Counted from the stretch's first letter, positions 9,414 through 20,425 are shown. The stretch is DNA of 64,000 bases from Pelagibius sp. (GCF_965227505.1 NZ_OZ245757.1:3822376-3886375); one strand, 5' to 3'. The notes: generated from the letters alone by a model not told the origin. Made by a program: numbers and translations.

Positions 9414-10346
9414 ATGTTTGTTGTATGCGGAGAGGCGCTCTACGACGTCTTCACCCTGGAGGAAACGCCCCGGGGTTTCACCATGGATGCCCGCATCGGC
9501 GGCTCGCCCTTTAACGTGGCGATCGGGCTGGCGCGGCTGGGCTGCGGTGTTGCCTTCTGTGCCGGGCTTTCCAGCGACCCCCTGGGGCGGCGCCTGGAAC
9601 GGCACCTCGAAAGCGAGGGCGTCGACACCCGCTACGTCACACGCAAGGACAATCCCACCACGCTTGCCCTGGTTGCGCTCGGTGGCGCCGGCGAGCCGCA
9701 CTACAGTTTCTACGGCCACGGGGCCGCCGATCGCGCGGTCACACCCGCCGATCTGCCTGACCTGCCGGGGAGCGTGCAGGCAATCCATTTCGGCTCGTTT
9801 TCTCTTGCGGTCGAACCCAGCGGTTCGTCCTTTCTGGAGCTGGCGCGGCGCTACGGCGGGGAGAAGCTGGTCTCCTTCGATCCCAACATCCGGCTGAACG
9901 TGGAACCCGATGCCGCACTGTGGCGCCAGCGAACCGAGGCTTTTACGCAGATTGCCGGACTGGTGAAGGTCAGCATCGAAGACCTGAGTGTCCTGTTTCC
10001 CGAGGAAACCCCGGAAGGGGTCATCGCCCGCTGGCACGCCAACGGCGTCCAGCTGGTGGTGGTGACACGCGGCGCGCAGGGGGCGCTGGTCTCCCTGCGC
10101 AGCGAGGCTTTCGAGGTACCGGGCCGGCCGGTGGAGGTCGTCGACACCGTCGGCGCGGGCGATACCTACCAGGCGGCGCTGCTCTGCGGCCTTGAGCGTT
10201 TGGGCAAGGCGGGCAAAGCCGGGCTTGCAGCCCTGTCGCTCGCGGACTGCAGGCGCCTGGTCGACTTCGCCGGAGCGGCGGCCGCGGTCACCTGTACACG
10301 GCGCGGCGCCGACATGCCGCTGGAATCCGACCTGCCGGAGATCTGA
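9414..10346 (+). CDS. PfkB-family carbohydrate kinase (probable fructokinase)
   Basis: VCGEALYD, GGSPFNVAIGLARLG, FDPNIR, VKVSIED, VVDTVGAGDTY. Confidence 0.9.
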   Translation: MFVVCGEALYDVFTLEETPRGFTMDARIGGSPFNVAIGLARLGCGVAFCAGLSSDPLGRRLERHLESEGVDTRYVTRKDNPTTLALVALGGAGEPHYSFYGHGAADRAVTPADLPDLPGSVQAIHFGSFSLAVEPSGSSFLELARRYGGEKLVSFDPNIRLNVEPDAALWRQRTEAFTQIAGLVKVSIEDLSVLFPEETPEGVIARWHANGVQLVVVTRGAQGALVSLRSEAFEVPGRPVEVVDTVGAGDTYQAALLCGLERLGKAGKAGLAALSLADCRRLVDFAGAAAAVTCTRRGADMPLESDLPEI

Positions 10347-12219: not shown

Positions 12220-12957
12220 ATGTCCGTAAAATCTCTTCTTATGACCACCTCGGCCCTTGTGGTGCTGGCGGCCTCCGCAGCGGTTGCCGACAGCAGCGGA
12301 GAGCCGAGCACCCAGGTTGCCTACGACGCCCCGGTCGCGCTGGAGTTCAATTTCAAGCTCCATGTCGAGGACAATCTGGCCGAGCAGGATGTGCTGATCG
12401 AACGCGAGCCCGGCTCCGGCAGGCTCTATCGCCCGACCGCCGGCGACCGGGACCTGAGCCTTCCGCTCTATGCCGCCGCGGAACCGCTGGAGCATCAGCC
12501 CTTCGACGAGACCGCCAATGGTCCCTGGCCCAAGGGCCGTGCCCTGGGCATCACCCTCGGCGACTGGCTGAGCGCCAAGGGTGAGGCAAGCTACAGCTGC
12601 GCGAACGGCGAGGGCAGCCTGACTGCCGACTTCACCGGCCTTGTGCCGGACGGCGTCTACACCATGTGGCATTTCTTCATGGCATCGCCGCCGACCGAGC
12701 CTTTCATCGGTACCCACGATCTCCCGATCGGCACGCGCGACGGCGCCCAGTCGGTCTTCACCGCAGACAAGTCGGGCAAGGCCCGCTTCGAAGCCGCTTT
12801 CAAGCCCTGCCTGCAGCTGACCGGCGAGCATCTGGCGGCCGGGCTGGCCATCGCCTGGCACAGCGACGGGCAGACCTACGGCGCGCTGCCGGGCGACTTT
12901 GCGACGGTGTCCCACGTTCACCTCTACGCCGGCCTGCCCAAGCGCAGCGGGCTCTAA
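12220..12957 (+). CDS. Secreted hypothetical protein
   Basis: Signal peptide (SALVVLAASAAVA), RBS CAGGAG, GC3-biased codons; two Cys and several His (MWHF, AWHSDG, SHVHLY). Confidence 0.85.
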   Translation: MSVKSLLMTTSALVVLAASAAVADSSGEPSTQVAYDAPVALEFNFKLHVEDNLAEQDVLIEREPGSGRLYRPTAGDRDLSLPLYAAAEPLEHQPFDETANGPWPKGRALGITLGDWLSAKGEASYSCANGEGSLTADFTGLVPDGVYTMWHFFMASPPTEPFIGTHDLPIGTRDGAQSVFTADKSGKARFEAAFKPCLQLTGEHLAAGLAIAWHSDGQTYGALPGDFATVSHVHLYAGLPKRSGL

Positions 12958-12989
12958 GAAGCCACCATAACTCGGGGTGGAGGCAGTGC

Positions 12990-13015
12990 AGGGCCGGCGC
13001 AGACGCGCCGGCCCT
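12990..13015. terminator. Hairpin between convergent genes
   Basis: AGGGCCGGCGC-AGAC-GCGCCGGCCCT, 11-bp perfect stem. Confidence 0.65.
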
Positions 13016-13035
13016 CGCTGTGTGAGGATAGGGCG

Positions 13036-13395
13036 TCAGTTGACGATGTTGTAGAGCGCGCGGGCGATTTCGCCTTCCAGCGGGAAGGACAGCATCCCCA
13101 TGACCGAGTATCCCAGCAGCCAGGGCATCAGGTAGAAGCGGATCATGAAGAAGAACCAGGCGACGTAGAGCGGCACCAGGGGTTCCAGCAGAAAGCCCGG
13201 CGTGATCGGCCGGAAGACTCGGATGATGGGATTGGTCCCCTTCACGAAGACCTTCATGAAAAAGAAGTTCGAGTCTTCCGGCAGGAAGAGGTTCATGGCG
13301 ACGCGGCCGATGAGCGTCCACATGATCACGCCCATCAGATAGTCGAACACGATGACCCAGATGGGAAAGACGGCAAGCGGGTCGGTTATCGTCAC
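13036..13395 (-). CDS. Small membrane protein (YggT-like)
   Basis: 119 aa hydrophobic; TNPIIRVFRPITP resembles the YggT D/TPxxxxxR pattern. Confidence 0.65.
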   Translation of the reverse strand: MTITDPLAVFPIWVIVFDYLMGVIMWTLIGRVAMNLFLPEDSNFFFMKVFVKGTNPIIRVFRPITPGFLLEPLVPLYVAWFFFMIRFYLMPWLLGYSVMGMLSFPLEGEIARALYNIVN

Positions 13396-13410
13396 CTGTT
13401 TGCGGGTCCT

Positions 13411-13444
13411 GAATAAAAAGGGTGGCGGAGAAACTCCGCCACCC
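13411..13444 (-). terminator. Rho-independent terminator after the symporter
   Basis: GGGTGGCGGAG-AAA-CTCCGCCACCC stem; the minus strand continues CTTTTTATTC. Confidence 0.8.
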
Positions 13445-13472
13445 CAGTCTACACGCTTTTGCTTGTTTCAGA

Positions 13473-15287
13473 TCAGTGCTTGGCACCGAGGATCGTTTCG
13501 CCCGAAGGAATACGAACCTCGTCCACCATGTCCTGCACTTCCTGGCTTGGCGCCGGGGTCATCAGGCTGACCACGACCATCGCCACCAGGCTGACCGGCA
13601 TGCCGATGATGCCGAAGCGCAGGTGGTCGATGCCCATCCAGGGCGTGCCGCCGTTGTACACGTAGTACAGATAGGCGGAGCCGGCGACGAAGCCGCAGAC
13701 CATGCCTGCAATCGCCCCCTGGGTGTTGGCCCGTTTCCACCAGACCCCCAGCACCAGCGGGAAGAACAGGCCGGAGCAGGCGAAGCAGAAGGCCCAGGCC
13801 ACCGCACCGAGAATACCCGTGAGCTGCAGGCTGGCGATCAACGCGGCGGCCGCGCCGATCACGATGAGCAGCACGCGGGCGACGATGAGCCGATGCTTGG
13901 TGTCCGCCTTCGGGTCGATGATCTTGTAGTAAAGATCGTGGCTCAGCGCGTTGGCGATGGCCAGCAGCAGCCCGTCGGCCGTCGACATGGCTGCGGCCAG
14001 ACCGCCGGCAGCCACCAGGCCCGAGATCACATACGGCAGGCCGGCGATTTCCGGGGTCGCCAGGACGACGATATCCGGCCGCATGAAGAACTCGTTGAGC
14101 TGGACGATGCCGTCGCCGTTGCTGTCCGTCAGGAACAGCATCTCCACGCTTTCCCAGTTCTGCACCCAGGCGAGGTTCTTCACCGCTTCGAAGGACTGTC
14201 CGATGACCGCCGTCGGCAGGGTCGGGTCCAGCAGCTGCAGCTTGGTCAGCGTGGCCAGGGCCGGCGCCGTGAAGTACAGCAGGAAGATGAAGAACAGCGA
14301 ATAGGCGACAGACCTGCGCGCGTCCCGCACCGACGGTGTGGTGAAGTAGCGCATCAGGATGTGCGGCAGCGAGGCGGTGCCCGCCATCATGCAAAGCGCC
14401 AGGGTGACGAACTTCCAGGAGTCCATGCCGCCCTGCGGGTCGTTGTGCGGTGTCGAGAGGATTCTCACGCCGCCGTATGGCGCGCTTTCCGTTGCCGCCG
14501 TTCCCAGCCCGACCAGGGGCTCCAGCTCCTGGATGCGGGCCACCGCATCGCCGTAGGAGAAATGGGGAATGAGGCCGAAGTCCTGCTTGTTCGACATCCA
14601 GATGACCGGCACCAGGTAGGCGATGATGAGGACGATGTACTGAGCCACCTGGGTCCAGGTCACCGCCCGCATGCCGCCGAGCATGGAGCACAGCAGGATG
14701 CCGACCAGGCCGATCCAGACGCCGAACTCGAAGGGAATGTGCAGCGCGCGCGCCGCGATGGTTCCCGAGGCGTTGATCTGCGCCGTCACGTAGGTGAAGG
14801 ATGTGACGACCAGGATCACAACGGCGCAGAAGCGCGCGACGTTGCCGCCGTAACGCGTTCCGATGAAATCCGGCACCGTGTAGCAGCCGAACTTGCGCAG
14901 GTAGGGCGCCATCAGCGAGTTGACCAGCACGTAGCCGCCTGTCCAGCCGACGATGAAGCCCAGATAGCCGTAGCCGCCGAAGTAGATGCCGCCGGCCAGC
15001 GCCACGAAGGAGGCGCCGGACATCCAGTCCGCCGCCGTTGCCATGCCGTTGTAGACCGCCGGCACTTCGCGTCCGGCAACGTAGTAGGCCTCGACCTGCA
15101 TGGTCCGCGACAGCCAGCCGATCAAGGCATAGATTGCCACGGTGAAGGCGACGAAGAGGATGCCGATGGTGTCGGCACCGACACCCATCTGCTCCAAGAT
15201 CGCCATCAGAATGATGAAGACGAGGAACCCGCCGGTGTACATCGCGTACACACGGCCGAGGTTTTCGATGAAGCTCCCTTTGATCAT
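13473..15287 (-). CDS. Sodium:solute symporter (ActP-like)
   Basis: YYVAGREVPAVYNGMATAADWMSGASF, GWTGGY, LRKFGCYTVPDFIG, GTASLPHILMRYFT, GGLAAAMSTADGLLL. Confidence 0.92.
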   Translation of the reverse strand: MIKGSFIENLGRVYAMYTGGFLVFIILMAILEQMGVGADTIGILFVAFTVAIYALIGWLSRTMQVEAYYVAGREVPAVYNGMATAADWMSGASFVALAGGIYFGGYGYLGFIVGWTGGYVLVNSLMAPYLRKFGCYTVPDFIGTRYGGNVARFCAVVILVVTSFTYVTAQINASGTIAARALHIPFEFGVWIGLVGILLCSMLGGMRAVTWTQVAQYIVLIIAYLVPVIWMSNKQDFGLIPHFSYGDAVARIQELEPLVGLGTAATESAPYGGVRILSTPHNDPQGGMDSWKFVTLALCMMAGTASLPHILMRYFTTPSVRDARRSVAYSLFFIFLLYFTAPALATLTKLQLLDPTLPTAVIGQSFEAVKNLAWVQNWESVEMLFLTDSNGDGIVQLNEFFMRPDIVVLATPEIAGLPYVISGLVAAGGLAAAMSTADGLLLAIANALSHDLYYKIIDPKADTKHRLIVARVLLIVIGAAAALIASLQLTGILGAVAWAFCFACSGLFFPLVLGVWWKRANTQGAIAGMVCGFVAGSAYLYYVYNGGTPWMGIDHLRFGIIGMPVSLVAMVVVSLMTPAPSQEVQDMVDEVRIPSGETILGAKH

Positions 15288-15299
15288 GTTGGCCGCCCC

Positions 15300-15611
15300 C
15301 TATTCGTCGCCGACGCCGGCTTCGTCGTCGATGGCGTCCTGCCGCCAGTTCTGGAAGAAAATCAGAACGACGAAGACGAGCAGCGAACCCTGGACGATCA
15401 GGTAGTAGCCCAGCGGAAAGCCCAGGAAGGAGATTTCATTCAGGGCCTTGGCGTTCCAAGGAAGGATGAAGGCAAAGATCGCCCAGACAACCAAAACGCC
15501 GATCGTCAGGTTGCGGGTTCTAGCCCAATGACGCTCCTTTGCTTCCTTGCCAATCCCGGGCGCTGATGTCCCCCCAGCGCCGGGGTCTCTTGTGGCTTCA
15601 GACATTGTCAT
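15300..15611 (-). CDS. DUF4212-type small symporter accessory membrane protein
   Basis: HWARTRNLT...FLGFPLGYYLIVQGSLLVFV...QDAID pattern, directly upstream of the SSS gene. Confidence 0.85.
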   Translation of the reverse strand: MTMSEATRDPGAGGTSAPGIGKEAKERHWARTRNLTIGVLVVWAIFAFILPWNAKALNEISFLGFPLGYYLIVQGSLLVFVVLIFFQNWRQDAIDDEAGVGDE

Positions 15612-15795
15612 TCCCCCAGATGTTTTTTTCGAAAATGCCCCAGTACTTCAACATGGTTGGCGAAGGTTCGCGAGTAGACCATGATTGTACTGGATTGAAA
15701 ACCTTAGTAGTAGCGATTATGACGTTTTCATGCTGTACAACAATCGAATCGATTAGCGTTTCGCTGCAGGTCTACGTGAATCCGCGGGCGAGCGG

Positions 15796-16467
15796 GTGAT
15801 GCAACCTTTGCGTAAAGCCTGGGCGTTTCTGCCCGAGTTCCTGGCGCGTCTGACCGTGCGGCGCGATTCGGGGCCCATCGATTCGACCGATGCGCTCTGC
15901 AGCTTCGTGGCGACGCGCGCGGCCTTCATTGCCCAGAAAACCCTCTACGGCTACCTGAAGGCCCGCATGGGCACACGCTATCCGAGCATGTTCGAAGACG
16001 ATGTCTTCGCGTCGTCGATCGATATCGCCAAAATGCATGTCTTTGCCGCTTGCCTGTCCGATCTGACCCTCTTTGCGGTTTCCCATGCGCTGCAGGACGA
16101 GACTGTCGACGATGTTCTGCGGCGCGAACTGGCACTGCACTGCTTTCGCAAGGGTTTGGCCGATAACGAAGCAGCCGCGCTCAGCACCTCCGCCTTCTCT
16201 TTGCCGGAGGCCGTGGCGGCCTTTGAACGGCGCCTCGCCTTCCACGATTGGCACGACGGTCCGCGCGGCCCGGCGCTGTTCACCGCCAGCCCCGCTGCGC
16301 TGTTCGATTGGGCCCCGATTGCCCCTGCATTGAAGAAGCACGACAAGGAAATCGTCGAGAACTCCATCAAGTTCAAATGGCGGGATATCCGGGACCGCTT
16401 CGAAAAACGCATCCAGGGGGCCGCCGTGGCCGCCGATCTAACCAGCGTTGCCGAATTGCGCCATTGA
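15796..16467 (+). CDS. Conserved hypothetical protein
   Basis: 223 aa, typical codon bias (FVATRAAFIAQKTLYGYLKARMGTRYP); no function assignable. Confidence 0.7.
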   Translation: MMQPLRKAWAFLPEFLARLTVRRDSGPIDSTDALCSFVATRAAFIAQKTLYGYLKARMGTRYPSMFEDDVFASSIDIAKMHVFAACLSDLTLFAVSHALQDETVDDVLRRELALHCFRKGLADNEAAALSTSAFSLPEAVAAFERRLAFHDWHDGPRGPALFTASPAALFDWAPIAPALKKHDKEIVENSIKFKWRDIRDRFEKRIQGAAVAADLTSVAELRH

Positions 16468-16533
16468 TTCTGATCAAGTCCCGCGACGCCGCAATGAGGT
16501 CTAGTGTCGCACCGCGGGAAGGGAGTCGAGTGC

Positions 16534-18696
16534 ATGAGTTTCCAGGGGGCCGAGGCCAGTCTCTCCGGGCTGCCGCTGCGGGCGGTTCCGGCGGTCGTGC
16601 TCGATACAGAAACCACCGGGCTGGACGTCGTCCACGACCATGTCATTGAAATCGGCGGCGTGCGCCTGTCCGGCGGACGGATCGCGGAGGGCGATACCCA
16701 CAGCGTTCTGGTCAATCCTGGTATTCCGATCCCCGGTGATTCGACAGCCATTCATGGCATAACGGATGCCGACGTCGCCTCCGCCGCCAGCTTCGACGAT
16801 GCGATGGCTGGTTTCGTCGACTGGGCCGGGCCATCGGTTGTGATCGGCTATTCCATCGGCTTCGATCTCGCGATCCTCAAGGCCGAGCACGAGCGCAACG
16901 GGCTCGACTGGCAGACGCCCCGCAGCCTCGACGTGCGCCACCTGCTCCATCTGGTCGGCGCCAACCTTCCCAGCCAGTCGCTGGAGACCGTGGCGGGCTG
17001 GCTTGGACTGGCGACCAACAACCGTCACCGGGCCCTGGGGGATGCGATTCTCACAGCCGAGATTTTTCTGGCCCTCGTCCCCAAGCTCGCGGAAGCCGGC
17101 GTTACGACCCTCGCCCAGGCGGAGCGCGCCTGCCGGGCGCTCACCGAGCGTCTCGACGAGGAGGCGCGGGCCGGATGGCAGGGCTTCGATCAACTGGGCC
17201 AGGCGGTTGCCCCCAGCGTGGCGGAGTACGCCCGCGTCGACAGCTTTCCCTACCGCCACAAGGTCGCGGATCTGATGAACAGCCCGCCGCTCACCATTGC
17301 CGGCGACGCGCCGCTGCAGGAGGCGCTGGGCGTCATGGCCGGCAAGAAGGTGAGTTCCCTGTTTCTGCCGCCTCGGGCGGACGCCACCGCCGAGGATGGC
17401 TGGGGCATCATCACCGAACGCGACGTGCTGCGGGCGGTCGACGCTTTGGGCGGTGCGGCGCTGCAGTGGCCGGTGGCGGAGTTCGCAGCGCGCCCCCTGG
17501 TCACCATAAAGGCGGAGGAGTTTGTCTACCGCGCCCTTGCGCGCATGTCGGGCGGCGGCTTTCGCCACCTGGGGGTGACGGATGCGGAGGGCGCGCTGGT
17601 GGGCGCGCTCAGTGCCCGCGACCTCCTGCGCCAGCGGGCGAGCGACGCCGTCTCGCTGGGCGACTGCATCGAGCAGGCGGAAACAGCGGCGGAACTGGGC
17701 CGCATCTGGGCGGACCTCACGGTGGTGGCGCGGGCGCTGGTCCACGAGGATGTGGACAGCCGCGACGTTGCGGCCATCGTTTCGCGCGAGCTGCGCGCGC
17801 TCACGCGCCGCGCCTGCGAGTTTGCGGAGGCGGAGCTGGAAGCGTCGGAGATGGGGCCCGCGCCGCTGCCCTATGCGATGATGGTCCTCGGCTCCGGCGG
17901 GCGCGGCGAGAGTCTTCTGGCCATGGACCAGGACAACGCCATCGTGTTCGCCGGCGACGATGCGGCCTCCGCCGCGGAGCGGAACGGGCGGGACGTCGAC
18001 CCCTGGTTCGCCGCGCTGGGCCAGCGCACCGCCGATATCCTGAACGATGCCGGCGTCTGCTACTGCAAGGGCGGTGTCATGGCCGCCAACGCCGAGTGGC
18101 GTATGGATCTCGCCGGCTGGCGCGACACCGTCGGCACCTGGATCACGCGCTCCAAGCCGGAAGACATGCTGAACTGCGACATCTTCTTCGACGCCGTTCC
18201 GGTCCATGGCGCAAGCGAACTGGCCGAGCGCCTTCATGAAGAGGCGCTGGAGGCGGCCAAGGGCTCGCGATCTTTCCTGCGGCTGCTGGCGCTGAAATCC
18301 GGCCAGCTGGAGGCCCCGGTCGGCTGGTTCGGCCGGCTGAAGCTGGACCACGGCCGCGTCGATCTGAAGAAGGGCGGCATCATGCCGATCTTCTCTGCCG
18401 CCCGGGTGATCGCCCTGCAGCACGGCATCGCCAAGCGCTCGACGCCGGAGCGGCTGGAGGCGGCCCGCAGCCTCGACCTCGTCCCGGCCCGCACCATCGA
18501 CAATCTGATCGAAGCGCACCGCATCCTGCTCGATCTCATTCTGCGCCAGCAACTGCGCGACATCGACCAGGGTCTGCCGCTTTCCAACCGTGTGGCGCCC
18601 GGGGAACTGACCGCCTTTCAGCGCCAGGAGATGCGCTGGGCTTTGGACCAGGTGCCGGCCATCGCGGACCTGCTGGGCATTCCCGCCTTCGCCTGA
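16534..18696 (+). CDS. Fusion: DEDDh 3'-5' exonuclease + CBS pair + DUF294 nucleotidyltransferase-like domains
   Basis: ExoI VLDTETTGLD, ExoII GFDLAIL, ExoIII HRALGDA; CBS (WGIITERDVL, GFRHLGV, VGALSARDLL); NTase GSGGRGESLLAMDQDNA; C-terminal VDLKKGGIMPI...STPERL. Confidence 0.88.
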   Translation: MSFQGAEASLSGLPLRAVPAVVLDTETTGLDVVHDHVIEIGGVRLSGGRIAEGDTHSVLVNPGIPIPGDSTAIHGITDADVASAASFDDAMAGFVDWAGPSVVIGYSIGFDLAILKAEHERNGLDWQTPRSLDVRHLLHLVGANLPSQSLETVAGWLGLATNNRHRALGDAILTAEIFLALVPKLAEAGVTTLAQAERACRALTERLDEEARAGWQGFDQLGQAVAPSVAEYARVDSFPYRHKVADLMNSPPLTIAGDAPLQEALGVMAGKKVSSLFLPPRADATAEDGWGIITERDVLRAVDALGGAALQWPVAEFAARPLVTIKAEEFVYRALARMSGGGFRHLGVTDAEGALVGALSARDLLRQRASDAVSLGDCIEQAETAAELGRIWADLTVVARALVHEDVDSRDVAAIVSRELRALTRRACEFAEAELEASEMGPAPLPYAMMVLGSGGRGESLLAMDQDNAIVFAGDDAASAAERNGRDVDPWFAALGQRTADILNDAGVCYCKGGVMAANAEWRMDLAGWRDTVGTWITRSKPEDMLNCDIFFDAVPVHGASELAERLHEEALEAAKGSRSFLRLLALKSGQLEAPVGWFGRLKLDHGRVDLKKGGIMPIFSAARVIALQHGIAKRSTPERLEAARSLDLVPARTIDNLIEAHRILLDLILRQQLRDIDQGLPLSNRVAPGELTAFQRQEMRWALDQVPAIADLLGIPAFA

Positions 18697-18824
18697 ATCC
18701 GGCTCACCCGTCTCTTGGGTTTGCGTTTCGCGGCCCGCCTCCTATCTTACAGGCCAAGCAATCCTTCGGGCATGCAGCCCAAACGGCGGCCCGTCACACG
18801 ATACAGACTGAAGGGGAGGCCTCT

Positions 18825-19265
18825 TTGCGCTACCTGCACACCATGGTTCGGGTGAAAGACCTGGACGCATCGCTGAACTTCTACTGCAACCTGCTGGGCC
18901 TGAAAGAGGTGCGCCGCTACGACAGCGAGAAGGGCCGCTTCACGCTGGTCTTCCTGGCCGCGCCGGAAGACGAGGGCCGCGCCAAGGAGGAAAAGGCCCC
19001 CTTGGTGGAGCTTACCTACAACTGGGATCCGGAGGACTACCAGGGCGGGCGCAACTTCGGCCACCTCGCCTATCTCGTCGACGACATCTATGGCCTCTGC
19101 CAGAAGCTGCACGACGGCGGCGTGACGATCAACCGCCCGCCGCGCGACGGCCACATGGCCTTCGTGCGTTCGCCGGACGGCATTTCGGTCGAACTCCTGC
19201 AGAAGGGCGACTCCCTGGCGCCGCAGGAGCCCTGGTCCTCCATGGAGAACACCGGCAGCTGGTAG
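18825..19265 (+). CDS. gloA: Lactoylglutathione lyase (glyoxalase I)
   Basis: MRYLHTMVRV, FTLVFL, VELTYNWD, GRNFGHLA, FVRSPDGISVELLQ; TTG start after GGGGAGG. Confidence 0.9.
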   Translation: MRYLHTMVRVKDLDASLNFYCNLLGLKEVRRYDSEKGRFTLVFLAAPEDEGRAKEEKAPLVELTYNWDPEDYQGGRNFGHLAYLVDDIYGLCQKLHDGGVTINRPPRDGHMAFVRSPDGISVELLQKGDSLAPQEPWSSMENTGSW

Positions 19266-19279
19266 GGGTCCGTCCCTCA

Positions 19280-20425
19280 ATGGGCCTGCGATCGGCCAAA
19301 GCGCTTCTGGCTTTGCGCAGCATCGCGTTCGCCTGTGCTGCAGCAGCCTGTCTGGCGGCGCAGGCCCAGGGGGCGGACTGCGATCAGCCGGACCCGGTCT
19401 GCGATGCCCGCGCCGCCGTCTTCGCGATTTCCGCCTTCGATCCCGTCGGCTCGGCGGTGCGCATCGGCCCGGACCGTTTGGTCACCGCCCGCCACGTGGT
19501 TGCCGACCAGCCTGAGGCGACGCTCTTCCTGGCCGACGGGACGCCCCTGACCGCCACGGTCGTGCCCAGCGGCTATGCTGCCGACCTGGTGTTCCTTACG
19601 GTCGAAGGCCTGCCGGAAGGGCCGGCCTTGGAGCCGACGGAAGCTCGCGCGGGGGTCGACTTCTTCACCATCGGGGCCGACGTCGGCCGGCAGCGGATCC
19701 GCGCGTACGACCCCGGCCAGGCACGGGCCCTGCCGGCGGCGGAGCATCCTCTCGCCCGCCTGCATCACGATGCCTACAGCCAGCCGGGCAACAGCGGCGG
19801 CGCGCTGGTCGATGCCGAGGGGCGGCTGGTCGGCATTGTCGCCTCCGGTGGGGAAGGGCGCTTCGAAGCGGTTCCCTCTGCCGCCTTGGCGGTACTGGAG
19901 TCCAAAAGCGGCGCCGGCTTCGCCGAAGAAAGTGCCGAACTCGGCGCTGCGGTGCGCGTCTGCACGACGCTGATCGAAGAGCGTCAGGCGCGACCAGGCC
20001 GGTTGCAGGATCAGGAAGCCAAGGCGATCGCGACCTCCTGCGGCCGGGCCGGCAACCGCCAGCTTCTGGATCTGGCCGGCCAGACCCTGGGGCGCGGCGG
20101 TGCCGCTGCGATGGCGGTGCCTCTCTTTGAGCGCGCCCTGGCGGAGGACCCCAATGCGATCAACACCCGCCTCGGCTTGGTCGTCACCCACCATCTGCTG
20201 CGCGACTACGAAGCCGAGTTGCCGCATCTGCATTGGCTGATGGAACACGCCGGAGAGGACCTTCAGGTCCTGCGTTTTGCGATCCAGGCCGGCACCTGGG
20301 GCGGCGATCCGGCCCTGGCGGCCGAGGCGCTGGCGCGCCTGAAGCGGGTCAACCCGCAGACGGCCCCGGCGGCGGAGCGCTTCATGGCGCAGCCGCCGCC
20401 GCGTCCCCCGAAGCTCGGAAACTGA
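19280..20425 (+). CDS. Secreted trypsin-like (S1) serine protease with C-terminal TPR-like helices
   Basis: Signal peptide; triad LVTARHVV, ADLVFL, QPGNSGGALV; helical repeat (AVPLFERALAEDPNAINTRLGL). Confidence 0.8.
   Translation: MGLRSAKALLALRSIAFACAAAACLAAQAQGADCDQPDPVCDARAAVFAISAFDPVGSAVRIGPDRLVTARHVVADQPEATLFLADGTPLTATVVPSGYAADLVFLTVEGLPEGPALEPTEARAGVDFFTIGADVGRQRIRAYDPGQARALPAAEHPLARLHHDAYSQPGNSGGALVDAEGRLVGIVASGGEGRFEAVPSAALAVLESKSGAGFAEESAELGAAVRVCTTLIEERQARPGRLQDQEAKAIATSCGRAGNRQLLDLAGQTLGRGGAAAMAVPLFERALAEDPNAINTRLGLVVTHHLLRDYEAELPHLHWLMEHAGEDLQVLRFAIQAGTWGGDPALAAEALARLKRVNPQTAPAAERFMAQPPPRPPKLGN

Follow-up and report, generated by a model that had tools for sequence, protein, structure and literature searches.

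Within a 64,000-nucleotide (nt) stretch of Pelagibius sp. DNA (NZ_OZ245757.1:3822376-3886375; hereafter the window, along which all positions are counted), we analyzed positions 13036-18696, where a single polypeptide joining a DEDDh exonuclease, a pair of CBS domains and a DUF294 nucleotidyltransferase is encoded opposite a sodium/solute symporter. The locus is made up of two divergent transcription units. On the plus strand, the gene for an all-helical, family-less protein of 223 amino acids (aa) (15796..16467) opens an operon with the fusion gene (16534..18696; 720 aa), 66 nt downstream. On the minus strand, the gene for the DUF4212/TIGR03647 symporter small subunit (15300..15611; 103 aa) is followed after 12 nt by that for the large subunit of a VC_2705-family sodium/solute symporter (13473..15287; 604 aa), and a gene for a small, YggT-like membrane protein comes last (13036..13395; 119 aa). 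The SSF-family gene, the true DUF294 gene and the 223-aa gene are each present as single copies in the 5.42-Mb, one-contig genome, all at this locus. A preliminary description of the window had reported one chain with a DEDDh site, a CBS pair and a nucleotidyltransferase motif, divergent from DUF4212 and a symporter and directly downstream of an unknown 223-aa gene. Pfam matches and conserved residues bear out the chain, the neighbors lie where they were placed, with the symporter being of the VC_2705 type, and the 119-aa YggT-like gene within the same interval had gone unmentioned.

Domains, fold and pairing of the fusion protein

The fusion probably starts at ATG 16534, 8 nt upstream of which lies the Shine-Dalgarno sequence GGGAG, within an open frame that runs from GTG 16504; its database entry (P0006) is 720 aa long. 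All Pfam matches on the protein exceed their curated cut-offs. RNase_T (PF00929) scores 100.2 bits (cut-off 24) at residues 31-188 of P0001 (16594..17067), which span the full 164-position profile, and TIGR00573 scores 74.4 bits on the same domain (cut-off 71.5). Among solved sequences, the PolC exonuclease (2p1j; E 4.5e-22) and Cas2-DEDDh come closest. The Exo I D-x-E, Exo II D and Exo III H-x4-D motifs are all present (D34, E36, D121, H175 and D180), and these residues are retained in 85-86 of 87 fused relatives. From these matches, the N-terminal domain is a DnaQ-like DEDDh 3'-5' exonuclease, predicted to hydrolyze the 3' ends of DNA or RNA.

The central part matches CBS (PF00571) in two stretches from residue 254 (58.6 bits, cut-off 24), forming a Bateman module at residues ~254-380 (17263..17643); the solved CBS pairs 2ef7, 3fhm and 2rif align to residues 254-382. 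Both halves, as read from the sequence, carry G-h-h-[ST]-x-x-D (GIITERD and GALSARD), the usual ribose-phosphate contact in CBS domains. This motif is suggestive only of a pair that might bind an adenosyl ligand and act as an adenylate sensor. Toward the C-terminus, DUF294 (PF03445; 119.8 bits, cut-off 21) covers residues 405-553 (17716..18162) and the helical DUF294_C (PF10335; 116.4 bits, cut-off 22.5) covers residues 590-717 (18271..18654). The transferase motifs GSGGRGE (residues 463-469) and DQDN (475-478) fit the Pol-beta signature, with G463-S464, ten intervening residues, D475-Q-D477 and a third carboxylate at D563; G463, S464, D475, D477 and D563 are retained in 68-76 of 77 fused and split relatives. 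The conservation of both active sites indicates that they are under selection and that both halves are therefore maintained as enzymes.

We modeled residues 385-730 with AlphaFold2 (mean predicted local distance difference test score (pLDDT) 95; predicted template-modeling score 0.93) and compared the model with 48,161 representative PDB chains using VIA-align and with the PDB using Foldseek. The top VIA-align match is the N-terminal domain of Escherichia coli GlnE (1v4a; Z 26.1, root-mean-square deviation 3.0, 311 residues), followed by the GlnE adenylylation domain (3k7d; Z 24.8) and Legionella DrrA (6yx5; Z 23.8). These superpositions have deviations of 3.0-3.9 over 297-311 residues and cover the whole model each time, and the next different protein is an aminoglycoside transferase at Z 8.5 (such transferases range from Z 6.8 to 8.5). 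Foldseek returned the same three chains at E 3e-7 to 2e-6 and no other chain at or below 0.001; a shorter DrrA fragment (E 0.04) and kanamycin nucleotidyltransferase (E 0.09) came next. Transferases that extend nucleic acids are distant, with a terminal uridylyltransferase (TUTase) at Foldseek E 0.5 and template-modeling (TM) score 0.19 and HalB at Z 6.5. Sequence identity to GlnE and DrrA is 11-17%, and the 25 best of 29 NCBIfam matches to the fusion all fall on the exonuclease domain, with no GlnD or GlnE model among them. Structure thus supports the "GlnD/GlnE-like" call made in the preliminary description, with Z 24-26 across about 300 residues. As modeled, the DUF294-DUF294_C module has the fold of a protein AMPylase, that is, an enzyme that transfers adenosine monophosphate (AMP) to proteins, and transfer of a nucleoside monophosphate (NMP) to a protein side chain is a prediction from it. 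The nearest solved relatives, GlnE and DrrA, all act on protein tyrosines. The fold of the model is silent on whether the transferase domain writes, erases or does both. To place the module quantitatively beside GlnE and DrrA is new.

The exonuclease and transferase keep company throughout the family. All of the 120 best listed relatives (56-100% identity; from Pelagibius, Kiloniellaceae, Devosiaceae, Rhodospirillaceae and Anderseniella) have the four-domain architecture with its order conserved, and several are already annotated as [quoted passage not shown]; the fusion is common in sequence databases, and this locus is an ordinary representative of the architecture. Searching exhaustively, without a profile, for relatives of the transferase part gave 3580 clusters at 50% identity, and the best 150 matches fall into two main length classes, ~700 aa (fused) and ~480 aa (CBS-transferase only). 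A survey of fused versus split architectures had been suggested in the preliminary description. A maximum-likelihood tree built from the transferase region of 42 fused and 35 split forms shows repeated interchange between them, with at least eight state changes, at least four of which are forced by strongly supported branches; this count of fusion and fission events is also new. Among split forms, the exonuclease gene adjoins the transferase gene in all eight loci with flank, and wherever the flank is long enough, the two enzymes are either fused or side by side. Such recurrent fusion and fission, with adjacency kept, argues strongly for a joint function of the two enzymes. In addition, split exonucleases often have an N-terminal extension of their own (260-540 residues; a PAS domain in 3/6 such cases), which suggests a regulated rather than a housekeeping activity. 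Two longer exonuclease-CBS-transferase proteins, P0266 (1154 aa) and P0305 (905 aa), have unexplained N-terminal extensions of ~510 and ~200 residues, which proved unrelated to the 223-aa protein when compared with it.

The symporter operon, the 223-aa protein and their linkage to the transferase

The large symporter subunit scores 684.2 bits against TIGR03648, the VC_2705 family (cut-off 320.75), and 178 bits against PF00474, and the DUF4212 protein scores 80 bits against PF13937 and 78.9 bits against TIGR03647 (cut-off 26.05). By these scores, the two are a VC_2705-type two-subunit sodium/solute symporter, for which transport is predicted. The TIGRFAM curators and Price et al. regard DUF4212 as the small subunit, and fitness data show it to be required together with the large one (10.1101/072470). 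The 119-aa protein scores 19.7 bits against YggT (PF02325; cut-off 27), and YGGT matches were found in 25 of 28 orthologues at E <= 0.01 (best E 5e-7), the orthologues being 65-98% identical; judged from these matches, it is probably a divergent YggT-family membrane protein. Its gene lies downstream of the symporter in 75/75 related loci with enough flank, an invariable position which suggests that it is a third component or partner of VC_2705-type symporters. Within the operon, the gap separating the symporter stop from the YggT-like start holds a strong, G+C-rich hairpin on the minus strand (13419..13445; 12-pair stem, 9 G-C pairs), which is followed by TTTTATT and could be a terminator, an attenuator or an mRNA-stabilizing element.

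The 223-aa protein has 666 homologues, with relatives in at least 590 species genomes, and is restricted to a subset of the Alphaproteobacteria; a sample of 301 genomes from across the phylum gave hits only in this genome and one other of the same class. It has no match in Pfam or NCBIfam, a PDB sequence search was empty even at E 10, and none of 49 family members has a Pfam match. Its AlphaFold2 model is all-helical (pLDDT 87.8). Fold searches with this model gave a best Foldseek E of 0.38 against the PDB and a best VIA-align Z of 5.9 against the 48,161 chains, which is within noise for helical proteins, and the clusters obtained from the ESM Atlas were all labeled "hypothetical protein". A Rosetta-stone search found no longer or fused homologues, which is weak evidence. 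Across the 49 sequences (57-92% identity), 45 columns are invariant, including the stretch S-T-R-A-A-x-x-A-Q-K-T-L-Y-G-Y-x-K-x-R-M-G-x-R-x-P; an N-terminal R-R-D-S-G-P is near-invariant and modeled at low confidence, and a G-T-R-Y-P loop at residues 59-63 is conserved.

The AT-rich divergent intergenic region (15612..15795) holds an element that resembles a promoter, precedes the 223-aa gene and is conserved in Kiloniellaceae: ATTGTAC, ~17 nt, and TA(A/G)TA(C/G). It is recognizable in the window and in loci L002, L003, L005, L007, L009, L011 and L012 (at ~9800-10000 in those loci), and is probably the promoter of the 223-aa gene, a putative assignment made from its sequence; a scan of 12700-19000 for the sigma-70 consensus found no promoter. 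Nitratireductor-type loci have another repeated motif, CATTGG/CAATGG. At the other end of the locus, directly 3' of the fusion gene and on the opposite strand, a 177-aa open frame (18747-19280, minus strand) has no Pfam match.

We surveyed an even sample of 251 alphaproteobacterial genomes, in which 45 have the transferase, 63 a VC_2705-type symporter over the cut-off and 22 the 223-aa protein. Transferase and symporter occur together in 33 genomes, and in 28 of these they are no more than 10 kb apart, in agreement with the earlier statement that DUF294 and exonuclease genes neighbor such symporters. Two more transferase genes adjoin ActP-like symporters. Conversely, the transferase occurs without a VC_2705 symporter in 12/45 genomes, and 30 genomes have the symporter without the transferase. 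The association is strong but one-sided, and the transporter does not need the enzyme.

The 223-aa protein occurs with the symporter in each of its 22 genomes, 17 of which also have the transferase and five of which lack it. The preliminary description had listed the 223-aa protein among possible targets of the transferase; it is present in only 17 of the 45 transferase-bearing genomes, and it is therefore ruled out as a universal target and is not the general DUF294 substrate. It could still be a local target or adaptor. Distant relatives of its gene are found directly upstream of split exonuclease/transferase pairs.

We also assembled 80 loci centered on the 223-aa gene, of which 73 have adequate flank for the transferase question. 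The DUF4212-symporter operon adjoins the 223-aa gene in all 80. The fusion directly follows the 223-aa gene in 30 loci and lies within ~9 kb in 13, whereas in five loci the exonuclease and the CBS-transferase occupy reading frames of their own, three of these being clear pairs of genes and two perhaps the product of a frameshift. A further 25 loci have neither enzyme despite adequate flank, and in seven the flank is too short to tell. The 223-aa and YggT-like genes thus form a fixed core with the symporter, to which the enzyme is an optional add-on, an arrangement that we report here as new. In some genomes, the fusion is in the symporter operon itself (L064, L096 and L001). In L096 (G152:C19), it is the last gene of a DUF4212-symporter-YggT-like operon; the same genome has its 223-aa gene on another contig without a symporter beside it (L095; G152:C2), the only such exception seen. 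Two loci (L016 and L049) contain two tandem paralogous sets, each with a 223-aa gene and DUF4212-symporter-YggT-like genes. Fused genes distant from the transporter (L081-L083) have no recurring neighbor; genes for OmpA, an ATP-binding cassette ATPase, a ketoacyl synthase, a short-chain dehydrogenase/reductase and a multicopper oxidase are found there. Our reading is that the 223-aa protein is a lineage-specific transporter accessory that may bridge the transporter to the enzyme operon.

Comparison with known systems

A split counterpart of the fusion has already been published. PP_0354/PP_0353 of Pseudomonas putida KT2440, equivalent to Pflu5625 and its neighbor in P. fluorescens (PA3233/PA3232 adjoin actP in P. 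aeruginosa), are likewise a CBS-DUF294 nucleotidyltransferase and an RNase_T-family exonuclease that are encoded together and associated with monocarboxylate symporter genes. Protein nucleotidylation is already in print as a hypothesis for this pair (PMC5715377, PMC9927547, 10.64898/2026.09.07.749794), and the 2026 preprint likens PP_0354 to PII uridylylation (10.64898/2026.09.07.749794). On pyruvate, P. putida lacking the exonuclease behaves like a mutant without the transporter, whereas one lacking the transferase does not. A "COG2905 / RNase T" neighbor gene is cofit with DUF4212/symporter genes and was guessed to be needed for symporter expression (Price et al., 10.1101/072470). The Pelagibius locus differs from the Pseudomonas pair in having one exonuclease-CBS-transferase chain without a cyclic-nucleotide (cNMP)-binding domain, a DUF4212/VC_2705 transporter with a YggT-like third gene instead of DUF485/ActP, an extra 223-aa protein, and no CrbS/R-like system.

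CrbS/R (MxtR/ErdR) controls the split pair in Pseudomonas, PP_0354/PP_0353 being a published CrbS/R target. Genes for an ErdR-like response regulator and a large hybrid kinase separate the transporter from the fusion in 15 of the 80 related loci: L021 (13772-18223), L013, L016, L022, L028, L030, L031, L033, L038, L039, L041, L043, L049, L054 and L064. The regulator scores 239 bits against NF041830 (cut-off 390), and the 1240-aa kinase, whose conserved N-terminal ~700 aa have no Pfam match, scores 420 bits against the NahK/ErcS-family model (cut-off 400). From these scores, the pair looks like an alphaproteobacterial counterpart of CrbS/R and would tie the alphaproteobacterial module to that system. 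There is no such pair in the window, and nothing in this genome matched the kinase's sensor region with the queries used; its best ErdR-like regulator scores 167 bits (cut-off 390) and lies 2 Mb from the locus.

Like the fusion, GlnD combines in one chain a Pol-beta-type transferase of the GlnE/GlnD clade (G-x-G-R-x-E ... D-x-D), an opposing hydrolase and small-molecule sensors. GlnK, the target of GlnD, is encoded with the transporter AmtB and plugs it. Unlike in GlnD, the hydrolase here is a DEDDh exonuclease rather than an HD domain, the sensors are CBS rather than ACT, the domain order is reversed, and no PII-like protein is present. GlnE and DrrA/SidM with SidD, which include the best structural matches, both use reversible tyrosine AMPylation; however, GlnE removes AMP by phosphorolysis with a second transferase domain and the DrrA mark is removed by SidD, of a PP2C-like phosphatase fold, with no exonuclease in either case. 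DUF294_C resembles HEPN (Z 7.8-9.1 to 2hsb, 5yep and 8xdj), as in MNT-HEPN systems such as SO_3166/SO_3165, although the likeness is in the helical domain only, within the range of common helical arrangements, and there is no toxin-antitoxin context here. In these systems, the MNT transferase attaches successive AMPs to a tyrosine of HEPN and so creates a protein-bound oligo(A), which a 3'-5' exonuclease could trim. By analogy, we may speculate that DUF294 enzymes carry out poly-nucleotidylation. That a nuclease can be a genuine eraser is known from RNase Z, the de-AMPylase of SelO substrates (PMC12663964), where, as proposed here, a nuclease of nucleic acid metabolism erases protein AMPylation. 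Unlike the exonuclease domain of the fusion, RNase Z is a metallo-beta-lactamase endonuclease that is not linked to its writer, and that writer is a pseudokinase.

A possible bifunctional switch and its alternatives

We propose, tentatively and as the likeliest explanation, that the fusion is a GlnD-style bifunctional signaling enzyme that sets the activity of the adjacent DUF4212/symporter/YggT-like carboxylate importer; for the combined statement, we would put the chances somewhat below even. The C-terminal GlnE/DrrA-fold transferase would place AMP or uridine monophosphate (UMP) on a hydroxyl side chain of a protein of the uptake module, as an inhibitory mark. The N-terminal DEDDh domain would hydrolyze the phosphodiester, free the 5'-NMP and re-activate transport, and the central CBS pair would bind an adenosyl-type metabolite and shift the balance of the two activities. 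The 223-aa protein, as a lineage-specific transporter accessory, may serve as adaptor or transducer, comparable to GlnK on AmtB. A DEDDh site attacks the phosphodiester 5' of a terminal nucleotide with a free 3'-OH, releasing 5'-NMP. The same attack on protein-O-AMP would free the side chain, so that the eraser chemistry is coherent, and the pyruvate phenotypes fit an antagonistic pair in which the transferase adds an inhibitory mark and the exonuclease removes it. The parts of this proposal differ in strength: a regulatory role in carboxylate uptake or metabolism is probable, a protein as the transferase substrate is about evenly balanced, and the exonuclease as eraser is rather unlikely. The writer/eraser reading as a whole is plausible as a hypothesis.

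Several observations weigh against this proposal. The symporter is without the transferase in 30/63 symporter-bearing genomes, and 25/73 adequately flanked loci have the transporter and the 223-aa gene without a transferase within ~9 kb; five such genomes were checked, and in three of them the fused gene has an unrelated neighborhood. Growth on propionate is reduced by both P. putida deletions and not by that of actP-I, so that the transporter cannot be the sole output, and the many unlinked copies argue the same way. The best structural match is the de-adenylylating domain of GlnE, with the two GlnE domains tying within ~1 Z unit, and GlnE shows that the transferase fold can itself catalyze removal, so no separate eraser is strictly needed. 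To our knowledge, a DEDDh domain has never been shown to strip a protein-bound nucleotide. RNase T, the only DEDDh enzyme tested, did not de-AMPylate SelO substrates (PMC12663964). We found no biochemical study of DUF294 in the literature, and no nucleotidylated substrate for any DUF294 protein.

It is possible that the chemistry is as proposed but that the target is an enzyme that metabolizes short-chain carboxylates (for instance, an acyl-CoA synthetase or CoA transferase) or a regulator of their metabolism, with the transporter neighborhood reflecting co-regulation only. The fused genes away from any symporter in 3/5 genomes and the 12/45 transferase-bearing genomes without a VC_2705 symporter point this way, as do the P. 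putida pair, which lies near glcB rather than actP and whose deletions, not that of actP-I, affect growth on propionate, and the 15/80 loci where the fusion is beside an ErdR-like regulator and hybrid kinase, since such regulators control acs and actP in Gammaproteobacteria. However, the proximity to the symporter in 28/33 genomes with both, the shared operon in L064, L096 and L001, the reported cofitness with symporter subunits and the lack of a recurring metabolic enzyme neighbor in the loci examined argue for the transporter, and we consider a metabolic target unlikely. Slightly less likely again is that the pair acts on nucleic acid, adding and then trimming untemplated 3' nucleotides and so controlling transcripts for the symporter or carboxylate metabolism. 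By sequence, the exonuclease is an ordinary DnaQ/PolC-type proofreading domain, and the characterized members of its family all cut nucleic acid; Henriquez et al. speculated on mRNA degradation, and the speculation of Price et al. on symporter expression would also fit. Yet the model, which matches GlnE and DrrA at Z 24-26, is unlike TUTase (E 0.5, TM 0.19) and the oligonucleotide-making HalB (Z 6.5), the locus has no apparent RNA element or RNA-binding domain, and the P. putida mutants grew no differently when DNA was supplied exogenously.

The transferase might instead make a small nucleotide-derived signal, or O-nucleotidylate a metabolite, and the exonuclease degrade the product; the two would then be a second-messenger synthase and phosphodiesterase with the CBS pair as gate. 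Aminoglycoside transferases have the same broad fold (Z 6.8-8.5), oligoribonuclease-type DEDDh enzymes are generally known to degrade short nucleotide signals, and sensor domains (CBS, cNMP and PAS) occur on both partners; the likeness to small-molecule transferases is, however, far weaker than that to protein AMPylases, and the locus has no evident receptor or effector domain through which such a signal might act. We regard a second messenger as improbable, more so than action on nucleic acid. It is very improbable that the halves have no joint function, a general repair or turnover nuclease being merely joined to a CBS-DUF294 sensor: the mild phenotypes of single deletions in Pseudomonas would fit, but fusion and fission recur with the partner staying adjacent, domain order is conserved in all 120 best listed relatives, and the catalytic residues are conserved in both halves.

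A bolder form of the writer/eraser proposal is that the DEDDh domain is a protein de-nucleotidylase, and with it a new class of AMPylation or UMPylation eraser, opposing a GlnE-fold writer in the same chain, and that the 223-aa protein is the modified transducer, docking on the transporter complex. Such a system would be a carboxylate-uptake analogue of GlnD-GlnK-AmtB, with the flexible N-terminal R-R-D-S-G-P and the G-T-R-Y-P loop (residues 59-63) of the 223-aa protein as candidate modification sites; we think this unlikely, though it deserves mention. The fused form is convenient for biochemistry, as it offers one protein, one candidate transporter and one accessory, with no paralogues found in the genome. 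Overall, DUF294 emerges as a large family with a predicted protein-AMPylase fold that is almost always paired with an exonuclease. If the pair is indeed a writer/eraser switch on carboxylate transporters, it would represent a new post-translational control of nutrient uptake and a new de-AMPylase fold.

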